The position numbers and the translations under genes were made by a program. DNA of 34,224 bases from a virus (taxonomy: Duplodnaviria; Heunggongvirae; Uroviricota; Caudoviricetes), in IMG/VR virus record IMGVR_UViG_2563366968_000004, positions 1 through 34,224 of that record. The stretch is one strand, 5' to 3'. The notes under the pieces are model-generated. The model was not told the origin of the DNA and ran no database searches. It worked only from the letters and a program-made list of their open reading frames with translations. Shown here piece after piece: positions 1,369 through 26,130 of this stretch. The first letter of the stretch is position 1. The number at the start of each line of letters is the position of its first letter.

Positions 1369-1444
1369 GCCGATATAGCTCAGTTGGTAGAGCAGCGCAT
1401 TCGTAATGCGAAGGTCGTAGGTTCGACTCCTATTATCGGCACCA
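1369..1444 (+). tRNA. thrW: tRNA-Thr (anticodon CGT), 76 nt with encoded CCA
   Basis: Cloverleaf readable: acceptor stem GCCGATA/TATCGGC, anticodon loop TTCGTAA with anticodon CGT at 1402-1404, T-arm GGTTCGACTCC. Sits directly downstream of proA, the known thrW integration hotspot. Confidence 0.9.
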
Positions 1445-1609: not shown

Positions 1610-2824
1610 GTGAAACTCAATGCCCGTCAAATAGACACAGCCAAGCCAAAAGAGAAGGCTTACAAGCTGGCCGATGGTGGCGGTTTGTATCTCTTGGTAA
1701 AACCTAATGGAGGTAAATACTGGCGACTTAAATATCGTGTAGCTGGTAAAGAGAAGCTATTGGCACTAGGTGTTTATCCTGAGGTTACTCTAGCCGATGC
1801 TCGGGCAAAACGTGAAGATGCGAAAAGAGGTATCGCTGGTGGTATCGATCCGATGGAAGCGAAACGAGAGGAAAAGATTGCCCGGGAAACGCAGTTAAAC
1901 AACACCTTCAAAGATATTGCCCTTGAGTGGCACAGCAGCAAATTAAAAAAATGGTCTGCTGGTTATGCTTCAGACATCCTCGAAGCCTTCAACAAAGATG
2001 TGTTCCCTTACATTGGCAAAAAACCCATCGCCGAAATCAAACCACTTGAACTTCTGAATGTGCTGCGTCGCATCGAGGGGCGCGGTGCTACAGAAAAAGC
2101 TAAAAAAGTGAGGCAACGGTGCGGGGAAGTTTTCCGCTATGCAATAGTCACTGGTCGCGCAGAGTATAACCCTGCACCAGACCTTACTAGCGCGATGCAA
2201 GGCCATGAATCTAATCATTACCCTTTCCTTACAGCCAAAGAATTACCTGATTTTTTCAAGGCATTGTCCAGTTACTCAGGAAGCGCATTGGTTGTTATGG
2301 CGGCTCGTCTACTGATTATCACCGGCTTGCGGACTGGCGAACTACGTGGCGCATTATGGGATGAAATTGATTTCAACAAGGCTATCTGGGAGATACCCGC
2401 TTCACGTATGAAAATGCGGCGGCCTCATATTGTGCCATTGTCTGAGCAGGCTCTTTCGCTTATTGGGAAGATTAGAGAAATAACAGGCAATTACCCTCTT
2501 ATGTTTCCCGGGCGCAATGATCCAAGGAAAACAATGAGCGAGGCCAGCATAAACCAAGTGTTTAAGCGCATTGGCTACGCTGGACGTGTAACTGGTCATG
2601 GGTTCCGGCACACTATGAGTACGATTTTGCATGAGCAGGGCTATAACACCGCGTGGATAGAAACGCAGCTCGCTCACGTTGATAAGAACTCAATTCGTGG
2701 CACATACAACCATGCGCAATATCTGGATGGAAGGCGGGAGATGCTTCAATGGTATGCCGACTATATGGATTCTCTCGAGCATGACGGAAATGTGGTGCAT
2801 ATGGTGTTTGAAAAACACGCATGA
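1610..2824 (+). CDS. int: Tyrosine-type site-specific integrase, P4-like (404 aa), GTG start
   Basis: N-terminal DUF4102-like arm-binding region (KLADGGGLYLLVKPNGGKYWRLKYR), C-terminal catalytic domain with R...HGFRHT...Y motifs. GGAGG 9 nt upstream of the GTG. Confidence 0.9.
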   Translation: MKLNARQIDTAKPKEKAYKLADGGGLYLLVKPNGGKYWRLKYRVAGKEKLLALGVYPEVTLADARAKREDAKRGIAGGIDPMEAKREEKIARETQLNNTFKDIALEWHSSKLKKWSAGYASDILEAFNKDVFPYIGKKPIAEIKPLELLNVLRRIEGRGATEKAKKVRQRCGEVFRYAIVTGRAEYNPAPDLTSAMQGHESNHYPFLTAKELPDFFKALSSYSGSALVVMAARLLIITGLRTGELRGALWDEIDFNKAIWEIPASRMKMRRPHIVPLSEQALSLIGKIREITGNYPLMFPGRNDPRKTMSEASINQVFKRIGYAGRVTGHGFRHTMSTILHEQGYNTAWIETQLAHVDKNSIRGTYNHAQYLDGRREMLQWYADYMDSLEHDGNVVHMVFEKHA

Positions 2825-4908: not shown

Positions 4909-5930
4909 CCGTCCAGAAGAAGACATTTTCACTGGCTGGTATGTCGCCAAAATCCAGCAATATGACAGCAAAGTCAGGCATTAATACAGCAGATACAAGC
5001 AAAGTTTATCATTTGCTGGTGGTAGGAGCGGATGCCTTAACTATGTCAGAAATTACGGTCGATGGTGTTAGCGTTGAGAAGGTCAGCGGCTGCGCCAGAG
5101 AATTTCTGGTCGTAGATCACCTGTTCTGCTCGTGTAGTGACTCCACAAAAACATTCGTCCACGTGCGTGACGTTAACGAAATGAGCGCGATGTATTGTGC
5201 ATCTGGTGCTTCCAATAGTGAGTTTTCGGAGTCCATAAAAAAGAGCTTGCCGTTATGCGGCAACACGGTTTATGGTTATAAGGCACCTCATAAAACGGGT
5301 GCCGGGATTAGGACCCCGCAGGCAATCGAGGCGATACATGACGCGCCAGCGTCTTTTTTTGTATCGGCGCACACGCACACCTTATCAATGGTGGGCTGTA
5401 TGGGGCTGACTTCGGTCAGGCTGGTTTCCTTGATTGCCAGTAGTCCTAACCCTGTACAGTCCACCGCCAGCGAGCTTAGGACCTCCGGCGGTGGCTATAA
5501 ACCATCAATCAAGGAGGCTGCCACATGCTGGCTACTACCCCTACCCAAAAACCGCAATTTATCTGGATTATCGCCGCAGTTCGCCGCGATTGCCCGACAA
5601 TTACCGCCAAAATTCATCATATTGCTGCCGAGTCTGAACGCGATGCTCGCCGTTCTCTGGTGCGCGATCACGTCTGCTTTTTTGCTGGTCGTATCCGCAT
5701 GGAGGTGGCACATGATTAAAACCTACGATGTGCATATGGATCCCCTCGAACGCACAAGCCAGATCATCACACTGACAGAAGTGATTAACGACATTCTGGT
5801 GAGCAACTCTCCCTCACGAGACGAAAGGCTGAAGGCGTTACTCGCGATATTGGATCTCGCCGTTCGTGACGTTCATTTCCTGCTGGAAGGTGGACAAATG
5901 CCAGTAAAAACGGGGGCAACCAATGAATAA
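4902..5930 (+). CDS. Hypothetical ORF (342 aa as one frame); probably a composite, the central part looks non-coding in this frame
   Basis: ATG overlaps the upstream stop (ATGCTAA). The N-terminal ~150 aa and the C-terminal 72 aa (from the internal ATG at 5712, with GGAGG RBS) look protein-like; the middle is Leu/Pro/Ser-rich and overlaps better ORFs in other frames. Confidence 0.3.
5525..5719 (+). CDS. Hypothetical small protein (64 aa)
   Basis: Strong AGGAGG RBS 7 nt upstream of the ATG; translation is protein-like. Confidence 0.4.
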   Translation: MLATTPTQKPQFIWIIAAVRRDCPTITAKIHHIAAESERDARRSLVRDHVCFFAGRIRMEVAHD

Positions 5931-19862: not shown

Positions 19863-21026
19863 TTACACATCATTAGTACCTTCCTTATTTTTTGACTGGG
19901 ACAAATTTGGGACCGATGGGTTCAGGATCGAGTCTATTTGCCGTGCGTGTTCGGTAAGGTGATTAGGTGCAAGGTGAGCATATCGACGAACCATTTCGAT
20001 AGACTCCCAGCCTCCCATTTCCTGTAACACTGACAACGGGACTCCGGCTTGAACCAGCCAGCTTGCCCAGGTGTGTCTCAAGTCGTGAAATCTGAAATCA
20101 TCAATACCAGCCCGTCTCAGCGCCGCTTTCCAGGCTGTGTTTGCGTCATACCGCATCTTCCTGACCGTTGGCGCTTTCGTTCCGTCTGGTTTGGTACAGC
20201 TTTCCTTGTACACAAATACCCAACGGTGATGATTCCCGATTTGTTTTTTCAATACGCGACATGCAGTATCATTCAGCGCAACGCCAATTGCGCGGTTTGA
20301 TTTACTCTCTTCCGGGTTTATCCATGCCACCCGGCGCTGCATGTCTATTTGTTGCCATTCAAGGTTGATGATGTTCGAGCGTCTTAAGCCTGTTGCCAGT
20401 GCAAATTCAACAACAGACTTTAATGGCTCCGGACATTCATCAATCAGCCTTTGTGCTTCATGGGGCTCCAGCCAGCGGATCCGTTTATTCTTTGGTTGAG
20501 GCACTTTAATAATTGGTGCCTTATCCAGCATTTTCCATTCACGCTCTGCGGCTCTTAGTAGGGCCTTTATAAATGAAAGATGCGTAGCCTTTGTTGCAAC
20601 GGACGCTGGTTTTGGCATGTATTCTGGAACAGGTTTCCCTTTTTTTCTGCATGCTTCTGCCCTGAGTTTCCAGTTTTCCTCATGACGCCGGTTCGTCATT
20701 TTCTGCATTGCTGAATAAATTTTTGATTCAGTAATGTCTCTTAGTTGCATTCCTGCGAAATGTTGAAGCCAGAATCCGATCCGGCTTTTGTCATCGTCCA
20801 GTGATTTTTTATGTGCTTTCTCTTCGAGCCACCTGATACACGCCTCCTCGAACGTCATATCAGGTATTTCACCAAGTTTGCTGACCCGCCATGCTTCAGC
20901 CTTTAGCTTGTCATGGAGCTCTGTCGCCTGCCTTTTGTCCTTTGTTCCAAGAGACTGTTTAAATCTTTTACCGTTCGGCAATGTGAAACTGGCGTACCAT
21001 ATTTCACCTCTGCGGAAGAGTGACAT
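19863..21026 (-). CDS. intR: Lambdoid prophage tyrosine integrase (Rac IntR-like), 387 aa
   Basis: Translation recognised as closely related to Rac-type IntR ([46 protein letters not shown]..., ...[18 protein letters not shown]...RYAHLAP). Confidence 0.9.
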
Positions 21027-21253
21027 TTTCTTTCCTCTGTTATGCCATCACCCGCGCTCACCAGGACAGTATGCAGCGGAGACTGAAGCGCCGCAATGCA
21101 GGCTTGTCGTGTTGTGAGGTAAGGAGATTTTAGTTTAGTGGGGTCTTTGCGTGTTGCCTGTAGGCGGCCTGTTCGTATCCAGTTGGTAGCGGTAGGTCTG
21201 GATATCTTGAGAAACTGACAGGCCTCATCGAGTGTGAGGCTGTATGGCTCCAT
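20903..21253 (-). CDS. xis: Excisionase (Xis-like HTH), start at internal ATG 21253
   Basis: [33 protein letters not shown] is an excisionase-type HTH. ATG has a GAGGTG RBS and a TAATG overlap with the upstream gene; 3' end overlaps int. Confidence 0.6.
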
Positions 21254-21558
21254 TATTTCACCTCTTGCTGTGTCATTGTTGAAAAATGGATACCAGCTCG
21301 TTGCTGCCAGACGATCCAACCGAGAGTCATATCCCATGCCATGTATTCGTTATCGCCGTTTTTTGCTCTCCGACGATCTACTAAGTCACCGAAACGCTTT
21401 TCCATGAATAATTCATAGGCTTCGCGTTCATCTGGCTCTACTTCCAGAGATACGAGTGCGATTTCATAAGCACGGCGCTCAATATCGTCTCGAACCTCTA
21501 GGCTGCTGATTCGTTCTTTGATTTCTTTAATCAGTTCTTTATTGGTAAATGTGGTCAT
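21253..21558 (-). CDS. Hypothetical early protein (101 aa), Rac YdaC-like
   Basis: Position between xis and the next early genes; resemblance to small Rac early proteins is tentative. Confidence 0.5.
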   Translation of the reverse strand: MTTFTNKELIKEIKERISSLEVRDDIERRAYEIALVSLEVEPDEREAYELFMEKRFGDLVDRRRAKNGDNEYMAWDMTLGWIVWQQRAGIHFSTMTQQEVK

Positions 21559-21920
21559 TATGCTCCAGCCTCCGGTGCTTTTGGCATTACTGCCCAGTGA
21601 GTGATATTGACGTTTTCAAGGTCCCCGACCTGAAATGTCCACTGCCATTCTCCGGTTTCTTTTTGTCCCCAGGTGTACCAGAGAGAACGCCAGCCAATCA
21701 GCCAGCCTTCTCCATTAGCATCAAATAACAGAACACTTTCATTTGCTGGTGGCAGTTCAGCTGACACTGGTATTATTTTGTTTTCCAGTGCCGCACATTT
21801 AGCTTCAAGCGCGTCGAATTTACGTACCAGGTACTCAGCATTTGTTTCGTTCACTTTCAGATCTCGCGGTACACATTTCCCGCGAAGAAACCCTTCCATT
21901 TCGAAAACATTCATGCGCAT
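21558..21920 (-). CDS. DUF551-like phage protein (120 aa)
   Basis: C-terminal W-rich motif (WYTWGQKETGEWQWTF...THWAVMP) typical of DUF551; ATGA overlap with the downstream gene. Confidence 0.55.
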   Translation of the reverse strand: MRMNVFEMEGFLRGKCVPRDLKVNETNAEYLVRKFDALEAKCAALENKIIPVSAELPPANESVLLFDANGEGWLIGWRSLWYTWGQKETGEWQWTFQVGDLENVNITHWAVMPKAPEAGA

Positions 21921-22447
21921 TTGCGTAACTCCGATAAATCGTTAAAACGTTCCATAAACATCCCGTAGGCATGACCCGGTGCCAGTGGAATCACGTTGAA
22001 CATCTCTGTTGCCGGGATGCCTTCCAGTACAGGCCAGAAAGAGCCATCATCAAGCCCGAGATCGCGGCGTTCGGTTGCCAGCATGATGAGATCGGCATAT
22101 TTCACGGGTGTACTCATAACTGGGGGTAACCCGTATTTCTCACGGATTACGGCGTCTATTTTTTCTTCCATCCGTTTATAGTCAGGAAGAAGGCGTTTCA
22201 GTGGTGCGGGAATGTCCTGGCAATACGCTTCTGTTGCATCATGCATTAACGCTTCAAAAGCAAATTCCTGCGGCACCAGCTGGCTGCAAAGAACCGCATG
22301 TTGGGCGACGCTGTAGAAGTGCGAAAGATGACCGGCAAAGCGACAGATATTTGAAAGGGAAACCGCGATATCGTTAATATCGATGTCGTCTTTATTTATC
22401 TTGTCATAATAAAAATGCTTCCCGGAAAAAGTTTTAATAAATGACAT
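21911..22447 (-). CDS. HD-domain phosphohydrolase (YfdR-like 5'-deoxynucleotidase), 178 aa from ATG 22447
   Basis: HD motif in ...FEALMHDATEAYCQDIP...; GGAG RBS 8 nt upstream of the internal ATG (MSFIKTF...). Matches CPS-53 YfdR in size and sequence. Confidence 0.8.
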   Translation of the reverse strand: MSFIKTFSGKHFYYDKINKDDIDINDIAVSLSNICRFAGHLSHFYSVAQHAVLCSQLVPQEFAFEALMHDATEAYCQDIPAPLKRLLPDYKRMEEKIDAVIREKYGLPPVMSTPVKYADLIMLATERRDLGLDDGSFWPVLEGIPATEMFNVIPLAPGHAYGMFMERFNDLSELRKCA

Positions 22448-22574
22448 TTTGTTCTCCACGTATATGCACTGCACCGCGCTGAATTCTGGTAAAAGGAAGC
22501 CCTCACCATCCGGTGATTATTGAGTTAATTACGTTTCCATAAATGCCCCCGCAGGGGCATTTGCAGTAATGAAA

Positions 22575-23399
22575 TCAGGCGGTGAAAGTACCAATAAAGG
22601 TTTCTACTTTGCTGTCTTTGAATTTCTCAACAAGCAGATCACGAAATTCGTTAGCCATTTCTTCCTGCACCGCTTCCAGCTGAATAATGCGCAGAACCAG
22701 TACAGGACGATCGCCAGTGATAATGCTGAGGCGTAATTTAAACGGACGTTCTTTCAGACCTTCAAACGGAACGCATTTAAATTCAAATGTCACTGGCATA
22801 ATGTCTTTGGTCTTCGCTTCGACAGACTCCATCAGGGAGCGTTTGCCGCTGAAGTCATTATCTTCAAAATCAGCGGTCTGGTTCGCTTCAATTGTGATTT
22901 TACGGATCGCCGCAGCCGCTTTGGTTGCCTGAATGGCGTCACCATTAGCATCAAAGCCCACAAGGTAGTCGGCCCAGTCTTCAATCCATTCTGCCAGTGA
23001 CTTCTGGGAGTTACGCTCGCCGTTAACAGACAACAGGGCAGAGAACGGTGCTGTCTTTTTCAGTTTGAGAGTGGCGGTGTTATCTGCGTGACCTGGTTCA
23101 TCAATAGTACCCAGGTTAAGCACACTGACGGCTCGCATATTATCGGCATCGATAAAGCAGCGGGTGCCTTCATCTGCAAGATCTTTAGAATAACGGGTAA
23201 AGTCATCGATGCTGGCAGTGGAAAGCGCACCACGGAAACGGAAGCGATTTAAATTAAATTTTTCCAGATCATGAATGCGGAAATTCTCAGGCAATGCCAC
23301 AGCATCGGCACCAATCTTACTGATAATTTCATTAACACCCTGAGCAGAAATAAGGGCATGGATTTGATTAATTGCGGTTGCGTCTAAGTTCTGAGACAT
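22575..23399 (-). CDS. DUF2303 family protein (YfdQ-like), 274 aa
   Basis: Translation recognised as YfdQ-like; same gene order as the CPS-53 yfdP-yfdQ-yfdR cluster. Confidence 0.75.
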
Positions 23400-23464
23400 A
23401 ATAAGTCCTCACTATATAAAGATATTCAGTGATGAGATAAATAATCAGTTTATTAAGAACGATA

Positions 23465-23827
23465 TTAATGACCTGCTGCGCGTAGTTTTCCGTCAGGTTC
23501 ACCGGCAAGAGTCAGTAATTGTCCCTGGTCTTCCTGCAGAATAGTCAGGCGACCACCGCGATTGACATACATCGGCGTTTCGGTGGTGTCTTCTTCGGAA
23601 ATTTTCCCGCGGTTAGTTGGGCGAACATATGAGAGTTTGTGTTTGATTTTCACACGGTTCTCATCAAACGGTTCGATTTCCAGGTTGAGCGAGACCTTAC
23701 CTTTGGTTTTCGTGTTCATCACACCGGAAGCGACTTCACTGAGAACAGCGCCGATTTTGGTTTCAAATACGCCGCCGTCCAGCTCCCCGATAAATGCCTG
23801 CACATCAGTACTGCGTTCGCTAGCCAT
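23465..23827 (-). CDS. YfdP-like protein (120 aa from ATG 23827)
   Basis: GAGGAG RBS upstream of the internal ATG (MASERSTDVQAFIGELDGG...); the longer ORF to 24058 has an implausible N-terminus. Confidence 0.65.
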   Translation of the reverse strand: MASERSTDVQAFIGELDGGVFETKIGAVLSEVASGVMNTKTKGKVSLNLEIEPFDENRVKIKHKLSYVRPTNRGKISEEDTTETPMYVNRGGRLTILQEDQGQLLTLAGEPDGKLRAAGH

Positions 23828-24529
23828 TTTGCTGCTCCTCATCATATCGACCCTGCAAGGTCGGTTGGTTTCTCCACAAAACAGAGAAGAACACCTGCGG
23901 TGACTGCCGCCCGGATGGATTGGGTTATGAGCCCGTCGTCCGGTGATTCTCTTCTCTGTTTTGTAAAAAGAGCGGTACCAGCCGGAAGCAAGGGTACAAA
24001 CTGGTACCGCCAAAGCAGTGGCTGTTGTGGTGGGGTTGTCACTCAGGCGTATGGTCAACCTGACAATCCGGTGCCCTCAACGGGGAAAGAGTAACCCCGC
24101 CATACTTACCGCCGCGCCATTTCGCGGATTACCACAACGCTGAGAGCACTTAGCCAGTTACGGCACCACACTTTGTCGCGGCTCCATAAATGCCCTCATC
24201 GTTGCACCCTGGTCTCTTCCCAGGCGTCAAACCGAATCGCCACGCTGGTTAGGCGTCTTATCAGCATCATCATTGACTTGCACATTCCGGCTACCTGGTT
24301 TGTTTGCCCGAGCAAGGAGTGGATTGTCCCCTTTAACGTCCCCAGACCGCTAACGACGCATGTGCCATACGCCGTGTTACAACCAAATTTTGTTAGTACC
24401 TTGTTTGTTTGTCTGGAAAGAAAGATAAAATGAAGTTGCGCATTATGCAAGTGTTTTTGTTGCGAGATATGCAATTTAAAGGGTAATGAAAAGCCACCTT
24501 TGGGTGGCTAATTGATGAGGAGGTAAGGG

Positions 24530-25222
24530 TTAATTGTGTCGCTTAAGGGTTTGTGACTGGCTGATTAAGACCTTTCCAAAGACCATAAACCGGTGTTCAT
24601 TTTCGCTGGTAATTCCCCATTCACGGTAAATCTGGTTATCAGAAATCACCAGTAGTTTGTCAGGTATCATTTGCAGTCGTTTGACATAAATTTTATCATC
24701 AAAACCAAATACATAGATACCATCTCCATCAAACTGATTGATACTGACATCAACGAAGATGAGATCTCCTGGCTCAATGGTTGGACACATACTGTCCCCA
24801 CGAACGTTGATAACTTTAATGTGATTGGCTGGCCGTCCGCCAAACATCGATACAGCATTATCAGTTCTGTATTCAATGGCATGAATCACATCAATGACAT
24901 CACCGCCCTGGATAAGGCCATTTCCCGCACTGGCACTGACATCCAGCATTTCAATACGGAATACATCCTTCACCTGCGCAACATCCTCACTAATACTGTT
25001 TTTACATACAGTATTACTTTTGACGTCTGAGGTAAAGAGATCAGCAATATCAACACCTAAGCTCCTGGCAATATTACTCAGGGCTTGTTCAGTGAATTGT
25101 TTCTGCTTACCTGTTTCCAGGCGTGAGATATTCGCCGCATCCACTCCTATTGCTTCAGCGAGATCGGCGATTTTCATGTTCTTCGCCTGGCGAAGTTGTC
25201 TGACTCGGTTTCCTATGTTCAT
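24530..25222 (-). CDS. cI: CI-like prophage repressor (N-terminal XRE HTH + C-terminal S24 LexA-like peptidase), 230 aa
   Basis: HTH (MKIADLAEAIGVDAANISRLETGKQ), S24 motifs (RGDSMCPTIEPGDLIFVD, Ser nucleophile; YVKRL, Lys); divergent from the cro-like gene. Confidence 0.85.
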   Translation of the reverse strand: MNIGNRVRQLRQAKNMKIADLAEAIGVDAANISRLETGKQKQFTEQALSNIARSLGVDIADLFTSDVKSNTVCKNSISEDVAQVKDVFRIEMLDVSASAGNGLIQGGDVIDVIHAIEYRTDNAVSMFGGRPANHIKVINVRGDSMCPTIEPGDLIFVDVSINQFDGDGIYVFGFDDKIYVKRLQMIPDKLLVISDNQIYREWGITSENEHRFMVFGKVLISQSQTLKRHN

Positions 25223-25319
25223 GCGTTTATTACATTTCTTTATTGCGCGTTAAGCAAATCAACTTGCGCAAAATATTTGCGTGAAATAATATGCTCATCA
25301 CGCAATATGTGGAGGTCAT
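25223..25319. promoter_or_regulatory. Immunity-region operators/promoters (TTGCG...CGCAA palindromes between cI and cro)
   Basis: CGCAAAATATTTGCG and TTGCGTGA-N13-TCACGCAA inverted repeats read directly between the divergent repressor genes. Confidence 0.5.
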
Positions 25320-25580
25320 ATGCAATCACCATTACGGAATGTGCGTAAGGCGCACGGATTTACTTTGCAGCATGTTGCTGCTGGCGTTCAGGTCAATCCA
25401 GCGACGCTGAGTCGTATTGAAAGACTGGAACAAATTCCATCTATCGATCTTGCAGAACGTCTGGCCAATTTTTTTAAGGGTGAAATCAGCGAAATGCAGA
25501 TTCTTTATCCGGCACGTTTTCAATCTAGCCAAAACCAGAATGGGTTTAAACCACAGGAACAGGAGGTAAGCCGTGGGTAA
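25320..25580 (+). CDS. cro: Cro-like HTH regulator (86 aa)
   Basis: GGAGG RBS 5 nt upstream; HTH (FTLQHVAAGVQVNPATLSRIE); divergent from cI. Confidence 0.65.
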   Translation: MQSPLRNVRKAHGFTLQHVAAGVQVNPATLSRIERLEQIPSIDLAERLANFFKGEISEMQILYPARFQSSQNQNGFKPQEQEVSRG

Positions 25581-26130
25581 TCATCACTGGAAAGTGGAAA
25601 AACAGCCTGAGTGGTACGTGAAAGCTGTCAGAAAAACTATCGCGGCGTTGCCGGGGGGTTACGCTGAAGCTGCTGAGTGGCTGGATGTAACAGAGAACGC
25701 ATTATTTAACCGCCTTCGTGCCGATGGCGATCAGATTTTCCCGCTGGGATGGGCAATGATTTTACAACGTGCTGGTGGCACTCACTTCATTGCCGACGCT
25801 GTGGCGCAGTCTGCAAATGGCGTCTTTGTGTCTCTTCCTGACGTCGAGGATGTGGACAATGCCGATATTAACCAGCGTTTACTGGAAGTCATTGAACAGA
25901 TCGGCAGTTATTCAAAACAGATTCGTTCGGCAATCGAAGACGGTGTAGTGGAACCGCATGAGAAGACAGCAATTAACGACGAGCTGTACCTCTCAATTTC
26001 GAAGCTGCAGGAGCATGCAGCACTTGTCTACAAAATTTTTTGCGTTTCAGAAAGTAATGACGCCCGCGAGTGTGCAGCTCCGGGCGTCGTGGCGTCGATT
26101 GCTTCTGGTTGTGGAGAAACTAACGCATGA
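25573..26130 (+). CDS. Phage regulatory protein, CII-like (185 aa)
   Basis: Position directly after cro; weak resemblance to CII/CP76-type regulators. Assignment tentative. Confidence 0.45.

Follow-up and report, generated by a model that had tools for sequence, protein, structure and literature searches.

The closest described relative of the genes considered here, a yfdP-yfdQ-yfdR-yfdS-yfdT block in a 34,224-nucleotide (nt) stretch of viral DNA (IMG/VR record IMGVR_UViG_2563366968_000004, positions 1 to 34,224; hereafter the window), is found in the defective prophage CPS-53 (KpLE1) of Escherichia coli K-12. Multicopy yfdQ and yfdR, together with either yfdS or yfdT, suppress over-initiation mutants and inhibit wild-type initiation at oriC, for which yfdP is dispensable (PMC4776307). 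YfdR binds DnaA domain I at Phe46 in competition with DiaA and DnaB, and oriC replication in vitro is inhibited in extracts oversupplied with YfdQRST (PMC4776307). Genes of the yfdP, yfdQ and yfdR types are common in early-left operons, with or without a recombination (Rec) module, and have been judged unlikely to be hidden recombination genes (PMC12315714).

The window carries the same five genes in the same order as CPS-53. YfdP, YfdQ, YfdR, YfdS and YfdT are 99.2, 99.3, 99.4, 100 and 98.0% identical to their K-12 counterparts, all four proteins of the YfdQRST module (Noguchi and Katayama 2016) lie at 98-100% identity with 0-2 residues different, and a hairpin in the yfdQ-yfdR spacer is identical. 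Matches to the 3.4-kb block occur in 4943 of 5426 complete E. coli genomes; in 1292 of these, coverage is at least 80% and the genes are annotated yfdP/Q/R/S/T. The block also matches the phages mEp460, 2H10, cdtI and SfV, Stx2c phages and others. Because of this near-identity to the CPS-53 genes and the matches throughout E. coli genomes, the cluster is already known. The yfdPQR trio itself is nothing new, but the K-12 block in an intact prophage, already tied to DnaA; a preliminary description of this DNA had called the role of the trio unestablished, which is not wholly so (PMC4776307). The two loci differ upstream of yfdP. In K-12 the immunity region and leader are deleted and yfdO/iteron DNA has been joined to the locus 21 nt before yfdP, whereas the window prophage keeps cI, OL and a leader region of ~600 nt, as well as a P22-type xis-int pair. 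Because of the K-12 deletion, the published yfd experiments were made without the native leader and control region. At the fusion point before the yfdP ATG of K-12 MG1655 (L165, 1355-1604) we observed iteron-like repeats of the yfdO region.

Here we find that the parts of this region worth pursuing are a structured leader RNA in front of yfdP and an exchange of yfdP-yfdQ for rdgC behind it. We tentatively propose, as a joint claim of which we are clearly doubtful, that an undescribed family of ~145-nt cis-encoded RNAs heads the early-left operon and that YfdP-YfdQ, exchangeable with rdgC, form a new two-protein DNA-binding module. For the region as a whole, we give about an even chance to its being best explained as the promoter-proximal early-left (pL) operon of a lambdoid prophage of the SfV/mEp460/CPS-53 type, in which host-replication shut-off fits the block better than nucleotide-based anti-defence. 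The leader RNA is a concrete candidate for early-left operon control in N-less lambdoid phages, and the exchange with rdgC, together with a genomic association with genes for single-stranded DNA-binding protein (SSB), exonucleases and annealases, gives DUF2303 a testable functional context.

According to the list of open reading frames (ORFs) and the sequence, yfdP, yfdQ, a hairpin, yfdR, yfdS, yfdT, xis and int form a leftward string on the minus strand:

23465-23827, minus strand: yfdP, 120 amino acids
22575-23399, minus strand: yfdQ (DUF2303), 274 amino acids
22541-22562, minus strand: hairpin 12 nt past the yfdQ stop codon, 9-bp stem with 5 G-C pairs and a tetraloop, -15 kcal/mol
22487-22508, minus strand: second hairpin of the yfdQ-yfdR spacer, UGGUGAGGGCUUCCUUUUACCA, from the fold of the spacer
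21911-22447, minus strand: yfdR, 178 amino acids, HD domain
21558-21920, minus strand: yfdS, 120 amino acids, Pfam DUF551, start overlapping the yfdR stop by 10 nt
21253-21558, minus strand: yfdT, 101 amino acids, phrog_660, start overlapping the yfdS stop (ATGA)
20903-21253, minus strand: xis, P22-type (phrog_2907 excisionase, 1.3e-50; HTH_17)
19863-21026, minus strand: int, from the ORF list
24436-24450, minus strand: operator 1 of the presumed OL/pL region, 15-bp palindrome TTGCGCATTATGCAA, from a pattern search
24460-24474, minus strand: operator 2 of the same region, 15-bp palindrome TTGCGAGATATGCAA, from a pattern search
24492-24509: terminator-like hairpin after cI, from a terminator scan
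24530-25222: cI-type repressor gene, helix-turn-helix and Peptidase_S24 domains (Pfam)
25243-25257: third operator copy, between cI and cro, TTGCGCGTTAAGCAA

The three 15-bp palindromes, of the form TTGCN7GCAA, flank cI and probably serve as OL and OR in this immunity type; promoter activity is predicted from the sequence. Because the palindromes read as OL and OR and the block lies to the left of the cI-type repressor gene, we regard the block as an early-left operon. About 700 nt without a convincing ORF separate the repressor gene from yfdP. Upon induction, the repressor would leave OL and transcription would proceed through two separable units: unit A, yfdP-yfdQ, with the structured leader at its 5' end and a conserved hairpin at its 3' end, and unit B, yfdR-yfdS-yfdT, with overlapping stop and start codons.

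To gauge how far the genes belong together, we used a set of 80 loci, one genome per species, from Enterobacterales, Marinobacter, Hahella, Photobacterium, Vibrio and pseudomonads; this collection was used instead of a viral-contig scan with a YfdQ alignment, which gave only near-identical E. coli contigs. In 79 of the 79 loci having upstream sequence, the gene immediately before yfdQ encodes a YfdP homologue, while yfdR is present in 61 of 80 (54 directly adjacent to yfdPQ, 7 at a distance of 0.5-2 kb) and yfdS and yfdT are rare. Because of these numbers, yfdP-yfdQ is a conserved, obligate unit and yfdR an optional neighbour. The preliminary description had proposed a conserved trio of a YfdP-like, a DUF2303 and a YfdR-like HD-domain protein in an early-left operon, with a stem-loop between the latter two genes. 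Its assignments and gene order agree with Pfam, PHROG and PDB profile matches and with the K-12 identities, its early-left placement with the position leftward of an S24-type cI repressor gene with two TTGCN7GCAA operators, and its stem-loop exists, with a start one base from where it had been put. Conservation as a trio holds for the invariant pair and fails for the facultative yfdR, and the natural units are yfdP-yfdQ and yfdR-yfdS-yfdT with the hairpin between them. So redrawn, the obligate pair, the coupled yfdR-S-T and the intervening hairpin show which genes to express together. The yfdR start is as annotated, at ATG 22447 (178 amino acids), rather than at GTG 22474.

Between the presumed pL and yfdP, we identified two consecutive structured elements:

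23971-24011, minus strand: T0, 13-bp hairpin GGCGGUACCAGcc...ggCUGGUACCGCU followed by CUUUUU, from folding
23828-23971, minus strand: leader RNA, ~145 nt, directly upstream of the yfdP ATG
~23969-23948 (5' arm) and ~23893-23872 (3' arm), minus strand: P1, closing helix of 21-24 bp
23922-23934, minus strand: tip of P2, GGGCUCAUAACCC
inside P1, minus strand: P3, in a three-way junction with P2, GCGG-CAGUCA-CCGC
between P3 and P4, minus strand: leader motif GUGGAGAAAC
23848-23863, minus strand: P4 hairpin, CGACCUUGCAGGGUCG, with the Shine-Dalgarno sequence and ATG next

A G+C stem with a U-run is present at the position of T0 in most related loci, and the U-run GCCGCCCTTTTTTAC is conserved across genera; by these sequence features T0, which immediately precedes the leader, resembles an intrinsic terminator. 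The leader itself is 75-92% identical in nucleotide sequence across genera, and its minimum free energy has a z-score of -4.4. RNAalifold found compensatory changes in 13 of 42 pairs among 11 leader sequences. In a covariance-model alignment of 33 leader sequences, 97.6% of cells are paired, and double changes affect 21 of the 42 pairs (86 cells), compared with 4-9 pairs (4-19 cells) when the partners are slid; none of 500 shuffles reaches the observed covariation values. The covariance model detects the leader upstream of yfdP at 31 species loci with 114-166 bits and at ~12 more with E<1e-3. The abundance of G-U pairs points to the yfdP-sense strand, and matches on the reverse strand score ~100 bits lower. 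In divergent leaders from Yersinia, Serratia and Proteus, P1 and P4 are kept and the interior differs.

Rfam 15 gave no match with E<=1 over 21000-25600 and only noise with E<=10 over 23780-24120, and the corresponding leader sequences from 13 other loci gave no match at the gathering threshold. The leader is present in 2491 of 5426 E. coli genomes (46%), in up to 5 copies, where it is unannotated or lies under a 'hypothetical protein' call. Many prophages of other Enterobacterales carry it as well. Each phage has one copy, and none lies downstream of pR. Several candidate identities were rejected. The AgvB and AsxR anti-sRNAs (small RNAs) and the Pas sRNA are late-region RNAs, and the AgvB/AsxR Rfam families do not match. 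A put element of the HK022 kind does not apply, as the covariance model finds no match in HK022 and the leader is a single copy in the window, not paired after pL and pR. Elsewhere in the control region, a hairpin at 24352-24378 has ACGGCG...CAUGCGUCG in common with stem I of HK022 putL; this 9-mer is not significant window-wide, the fold z-scores are unremarkable and the space after cro is too small for a putR. The ~420 nt from the presumed pL to T0 (24012-24435, minus strand) contain no convincing ORF, yet patches of them are conserved across other genera. tRNA genes upstream of the leader, considered as an explanation of T0, were not general, as ARAGORN made a single odd call among 45 loci.

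The most conserved hairpin tip of the leader, that of P2 (GGG-CUCAUAA-CCC), is the same as the anticodon stem-loop of initiator tRNA-fMet in its three G-C pairs and CUCAUAA loop (CGGGCUCAUAACCCGA in the tRNA, CGGGCUCAUAACCCAA in the leader). The E. coli tRNA-fMet sequence used for this comparison occurs at 100% identity in 5426 of 5426 genomes, in a median of 4 copies annotated as tRNA-Met. CUCAU is kept in 29 of the 31 species leaders and UUCAU occurs in one more, with the next two loop bases varying (AA, UC, UA). The leader was not called as a tRNA by ARAGORN or by the Rfam tRNA model. Pairing of the loop with the start codon (CUCAU with AUGAG) was also considered and fails for loci of the rdgC type. 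If functional, the leader could serve N-less lambdoid phages in processive antitermination or as an RNase III processing element, could mimic the tRNA-fMet anticodon arm and bind the 30S P site or methionyl-tRNA synthetase, or could be a decoy for VapC-type toxins that cleave tRNA-fMet.

A motif scan of viral contigs gave 107 usable leader sites, with YfdP encoded ~90 nt downstream in 75 and not in the other 32. These 32 sites have the same full-length leader (covariance model, 96-142 bits), which precedes yfdR directly, genes of the RdgC family (often followed by yfdR), or xis-int. Two divergent RdgC-family types are found behind the leader (Pfam, 1.5e-115 and 5.4e-31). Contigs in which the leader stands before rdgC, yfdR or xis-int include L174, L209, L211, L288, L170 and L207; a further contig, L171, has a partial P2-P3 copy upstream of a holin/lysozyme pair. 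Because it also occurs before rdgC, yfdR and xis-int, the leader is not specific to yfdP but belongs to the early-left operon of this phage group, and because the same leader precedes either yfdPQ or rdgC, the first-gene slot is exchangeable.

The downstream border of this slot is the hairpin after yfdQ (AAATGCCCC-CGCA-GGGGCATTT as DNA, AAAUGCCCC-UGCG-GGGGCAUUU as RNA), whose G+C-rich stem-loop is of the kind found in intrinsic terminators. A hairpin of -10 kcal/mol or lower lies within 60 nt downstream of yfdQ in 70 of 71 distinct sequences from other species, versus 11 of 71 dinucleotide shuffles. The stems vary while pairing is kept (AAUUGCCCUG/CGGGGCAAUU, AAAUACCCCA/UGGGGUAUUU, UAAGCGUCG/CGGCGCUUA, GGGGCG/CGCCCC and others), at the same site in essentially every locus, including those without yfdR. 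In phage contigs without yfdPQ, a hairpin of this type stands directly between leader and yfdR, and a different long hairpin occupies the equivalent position after rdgC. A recombination scar or module boundary without an RNA role would account for a hairpin at the very junction that has yfdPQ in some loci and not in others, for the different one after rdgC and for the weak U-tract. We consider this very unlikely, since compensatory stem changes across genera between unconserved flanks argue that selection acts on pairing and not on an identity of sequence needed for recombination. We conclude that the hairpin after yfdQ is a selected RNA structure that marks the 3' end of the first-gene cassette. 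At this module junction it would act most likely as a leaky terminator or as a 3' stabiliser of the mRNA, and so may set the ratio of yfdPQ to yfdRST expression; attenuation of transcription by it, raised in the preliminary description, is plausible.

The whole yfdQ-yfdR spacer is 127 nt long, with a fold z-score of -2.85. Small G+C hairpins with UGCAG in their loops lie 15-25 nt upstream of the starts of yfdP, yfdR and rdgC, at 23848-23863 and about 22463-22476 in the window (both minus strand) and in the contigs L174, L204 and L211; the same loop recurs in P3 in many leaders. These hairpins could be a repeated protein-binding or processing motif.

YfdQ is a member of Pfam PF10065 (DUF2303; E 7.7e-93, 311 bits where the cut-off is 26.6, covering residues 7-272 of 274), and its profile matches PDB entry 9o7m, 'YfdQ Protein' (4e-57). 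This entry is the only solved DUF2303 structure and apparently unpublished, as we found no paper mentioning it; its YfdQ is 93.5% identical to ORF37 of Xanthomonas phage CP2 (L168, 3065-3886). The 36 chains of 9o7m suggest a large assembly, and YfdQ is probably a large homo-oligomer. YfdP matches phrog_204 (1.2e-49), and its close homologues all carry precomputed PF27127. It is predicted to consist of one long helix and a curved beta-sheet, with an invariant acidic motif, SEEDTTETPMYV. The PDB holds no YfdP homologue, and neither does it hold ORF36, the neighbour of ORF37 in CP2. AlphaFold2 models of YfdQ and YfdP (model confidence, pLDDT, 76 and 71) returned only noise (best E 0.04) from a PDB copy that runs to April 2026 and does not include 9o7m, and in BFVD the YfdQ model matched only other uncharacterised DUF2303 proteins.

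The yfdP-yfdQ pairing extends to four distant phages, namely P13374, Pseudomonas LPPA56, Xanthomonas CP2 and Vibrio 24E30.2. The gene orders are gam-recT-exo-ssb-yfdP-yfdQ in P13374, dnaQ-like-yfdP-yfdQ-ssb in 24E30.2 and yfdP-yfdQ-DUF1351-ERF-YqaJ in CP2. Genes 23/24 of Vibrio podophage VvAW1 are paired in the same way, with SSB and exonuclease genes nearby (PMC3558961). Phage JC1 has RecT and YqaJ near DUF2303, and its DUF2303 protein was found in virions by mass spectrometry (PMC9144972). The YfdP homologue of P13374, the Stx2a phage from the O104:H4 outbreak strain, is divided between two frames (L166, 3058-3434). Its annotation gives two small ORFs in front of an intact yfdQ, and the split could be a frameshift or a pseudogene. 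Based on these distant-phage neighbourhoods, in which the pair is always beside SSB, exonuclease or annealase genes, and on the slot exchange with rdgC, we place YfdP-YfdQ among putative DNA-transaction accessories. YfdQ as a remote RdgC homologue was rejected (hhalign probability 0.14).

The same neighbourhoods might suggest that yfdP-yfdQ encode an unrecognised recombination function, such as an annealase, a mediator or an end-binding pair, that replaces a missing Rec module. From int to cI, the prophage in the window lacks exo, bet, gam, erf and recT, 36 chains in one PDB entry would suit a filament or stacked rings, and the AlphaFold2 model of YfdQ has two beta-beta-beta-alpha units, a pattern reminiscent of Rad52-type annealases. 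Nevertheless, Pfam, PHROG and fold searches found no homology to Redbeta, RecT, Erf, Sak, Exo, RecE, Gam or Abc2, and Foldseek gave no above-noise match to Redbeta, RecT, Rad52, Erf or Ku. The pair stands beside complete Rec modules in P13374 and in CP2 (ERF and YqaJ), as well as in JC1 (RecT and YqaJ; PMC9144972) and ArgO145 (PMC12315714), and for this reason yfdPQ is no substitute for a Rec module. A recombination role of this kind, also weighed and rejected by other authors (PMC12315714), appears improbable to us.

YfdR matches phrog_318, annotated 'deoxyribonucleoside 5' monophosphate phosphatase' (3e-111), and the HD-domain structure 2gz4 (3.3e-14) with an aligned H...HD...D motif (AQH, MHD, QD), which places it in the HD superfamily. 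It scores 19.8 bits against the NCBIfam YfbR equivalog NF003009 (cut-off 122) and 24.1 bits against Pfam YfbR-like PF12917, just below the cut-off of 25.9; by these scores, YfdR is a relative of YfbR and not an orthologue. The nucleotide affinity of YfdR is much below that of YfbR, according to literature cited in PMC4776307.

The preliminary description had gone on to suggest that the trio alters deoxyribonucleotide pools, counters defences or excludes other phages, for which we found no support. In its general form, this explanation holds that YfdR, with YfdP and YfdQ, remodels nucleotide pools or degrades signals, as an anti-defence or superinfection-exclusion module. The intact HD motif, the phosphatase annotation of the PHROG and the location in an early operon, where anti-defence genes often occur, are in its favour, and Dmp of phage T5 is reportedly an HD-type deoxyribonucleoside monophosphatase serving host takeover. 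On the other side, PADLOC matched 0 families for all five proteins, the YfbR equivalog cut-off is missed widely, nucleotide affinity is reported to be low, the only demonstrated partner is DnaA, and a yfdR that is facultative beside yfdPQ does not make an obligate three-gene system. To our knowledge, no HD or YfdR-like family is known among anti-defence proteins that degrade nucleotide signals. We give this explanation little credence.

The role in the phage that we favour for the module is shut-off or hijack of host replication during lytic growth, which would be analogous to the action of lambda P on DnaA; a weak nucleotidase activity of the HD fold of YfdR would probably be secondary. Several points weigh against this explanation and its extension to YfdP-YfdQ. 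The oriC effect was obtained in multicopy only, and deletion of yfdQRST left initiation and hydroxyurea resistance unchanged (PMC4776307). The authors conceded a possible overexpression artefact, purified YfdR inhibited DiaA and DnaB binding only moderately, and yfdP was not needed (PMC4776307). A quarter of yfdPQ loci have no yfdR, and for this reason yfdPQ must have some function apart from DnaA targeting. Neither YfdP nor YfdQ resembles any DNA-binding family in fold or sequence. Finally, the tail of the hairpin after yfdQ, AUUUAUGG, is weakly U-rich and has no run of at least 5 U in the 8 nt after the stem, and the terminator scan reports no terminator there.

Deletion phenotypes have also been described that would fit lysogenic-conversion or stress-tolerance functions (H2O2, acid, methyl methanesulfonate) kept for the benefit of the host. 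Deletion of yfdQ or yfdS raises sensitivity to H2O2, and that of yfdQ also to methyl methanesulfonate (cited in PMC4776307), the block is kept in the defective CPS-53 despite loss of immunity region and leader, and it is widespread in E. coli, in 4943 of 5426 genomes. We count the two yfdQ sensitivities also in favour of the explanation of the region that we prefer. However, these deletion effects are weak, phages of viral collections, including Xanthomonas CP2 and Vibrio podophage VvAW1, carry the pair too, and genes behind a repressor-controlled OL/pL, a terminator-like hairpin and a long leader should be silent in lysogens. We therefore regard such a host-directed function as unlikely, and host-replication shut-off remains our preferred explanation of the block.

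Outside the block, the ORFs of xis and int share 124 nt, and at the position of xis the annotation of a 99.9% identical genome shows only a 66-nt remnant, marked as a pseudogene. A tRNA-Thr(CGU) gene (1369-1444, plus strand) lies in the left part of the window and is followed by a 404-amino-acid ORF (1610-2824, plus strand); farther along are the sRNA isrK (5283-5359, plus strand) and a C4 antisense RNA (5384-5471, plus strand), both above the Rfam gathering threshold. These RNAs and the tRNA-Thr gene suggest a second integrated element with RNA immunity of the P1/P7 type.

Among known systems, lambda P and Bacillus subtilis SirA, which are inhibitors of phage or developmental origin, are, like YfdR, small accessory proteins that bind DnaA and lower initiation at oriC. 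YfdR and SirA both use the Phe46/Phe49 surface of DnaA domain I (PMC4776307). Lambda P, by contrast, binds domain III, and neither protein is related to YfdR in sequence; YfdR differs from both in its HD phosphohydrolase fold and in its requirement for YfdQ plus YfdS or YfdT in vivo. This fold and its motif are common to YfdR, YfbR, Atu1052 (2gz4) and T5 Dmp, yet unlike enzymes of the YfbR type, YfdR is below curated cut-offs, has a low reported nucleotide affinity and has a protein, DnaA, as its known partner. RdgC takes the same slot as yfdPQ in related phages, between leader RNA and yfdR, although it is one protein instead of two and is not homologous to YfdQ.

Like the put elements of HK022 and the RNase III site of the lambda N leader, the leader is a cis structured RNA near the start of an early operon, here in a phage without an N homologue. 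The thrS operator contains a copy of a tRNA anticodon arm, as does the leader. It has been speculated that N-less relatives may use a put-like mechanism (PMC12315714). The leader differs from put in its position downstream of a terminator-like hairpin and ~450 nt away from pL, in being twice the size and in its closing helix of 21-24 bp.

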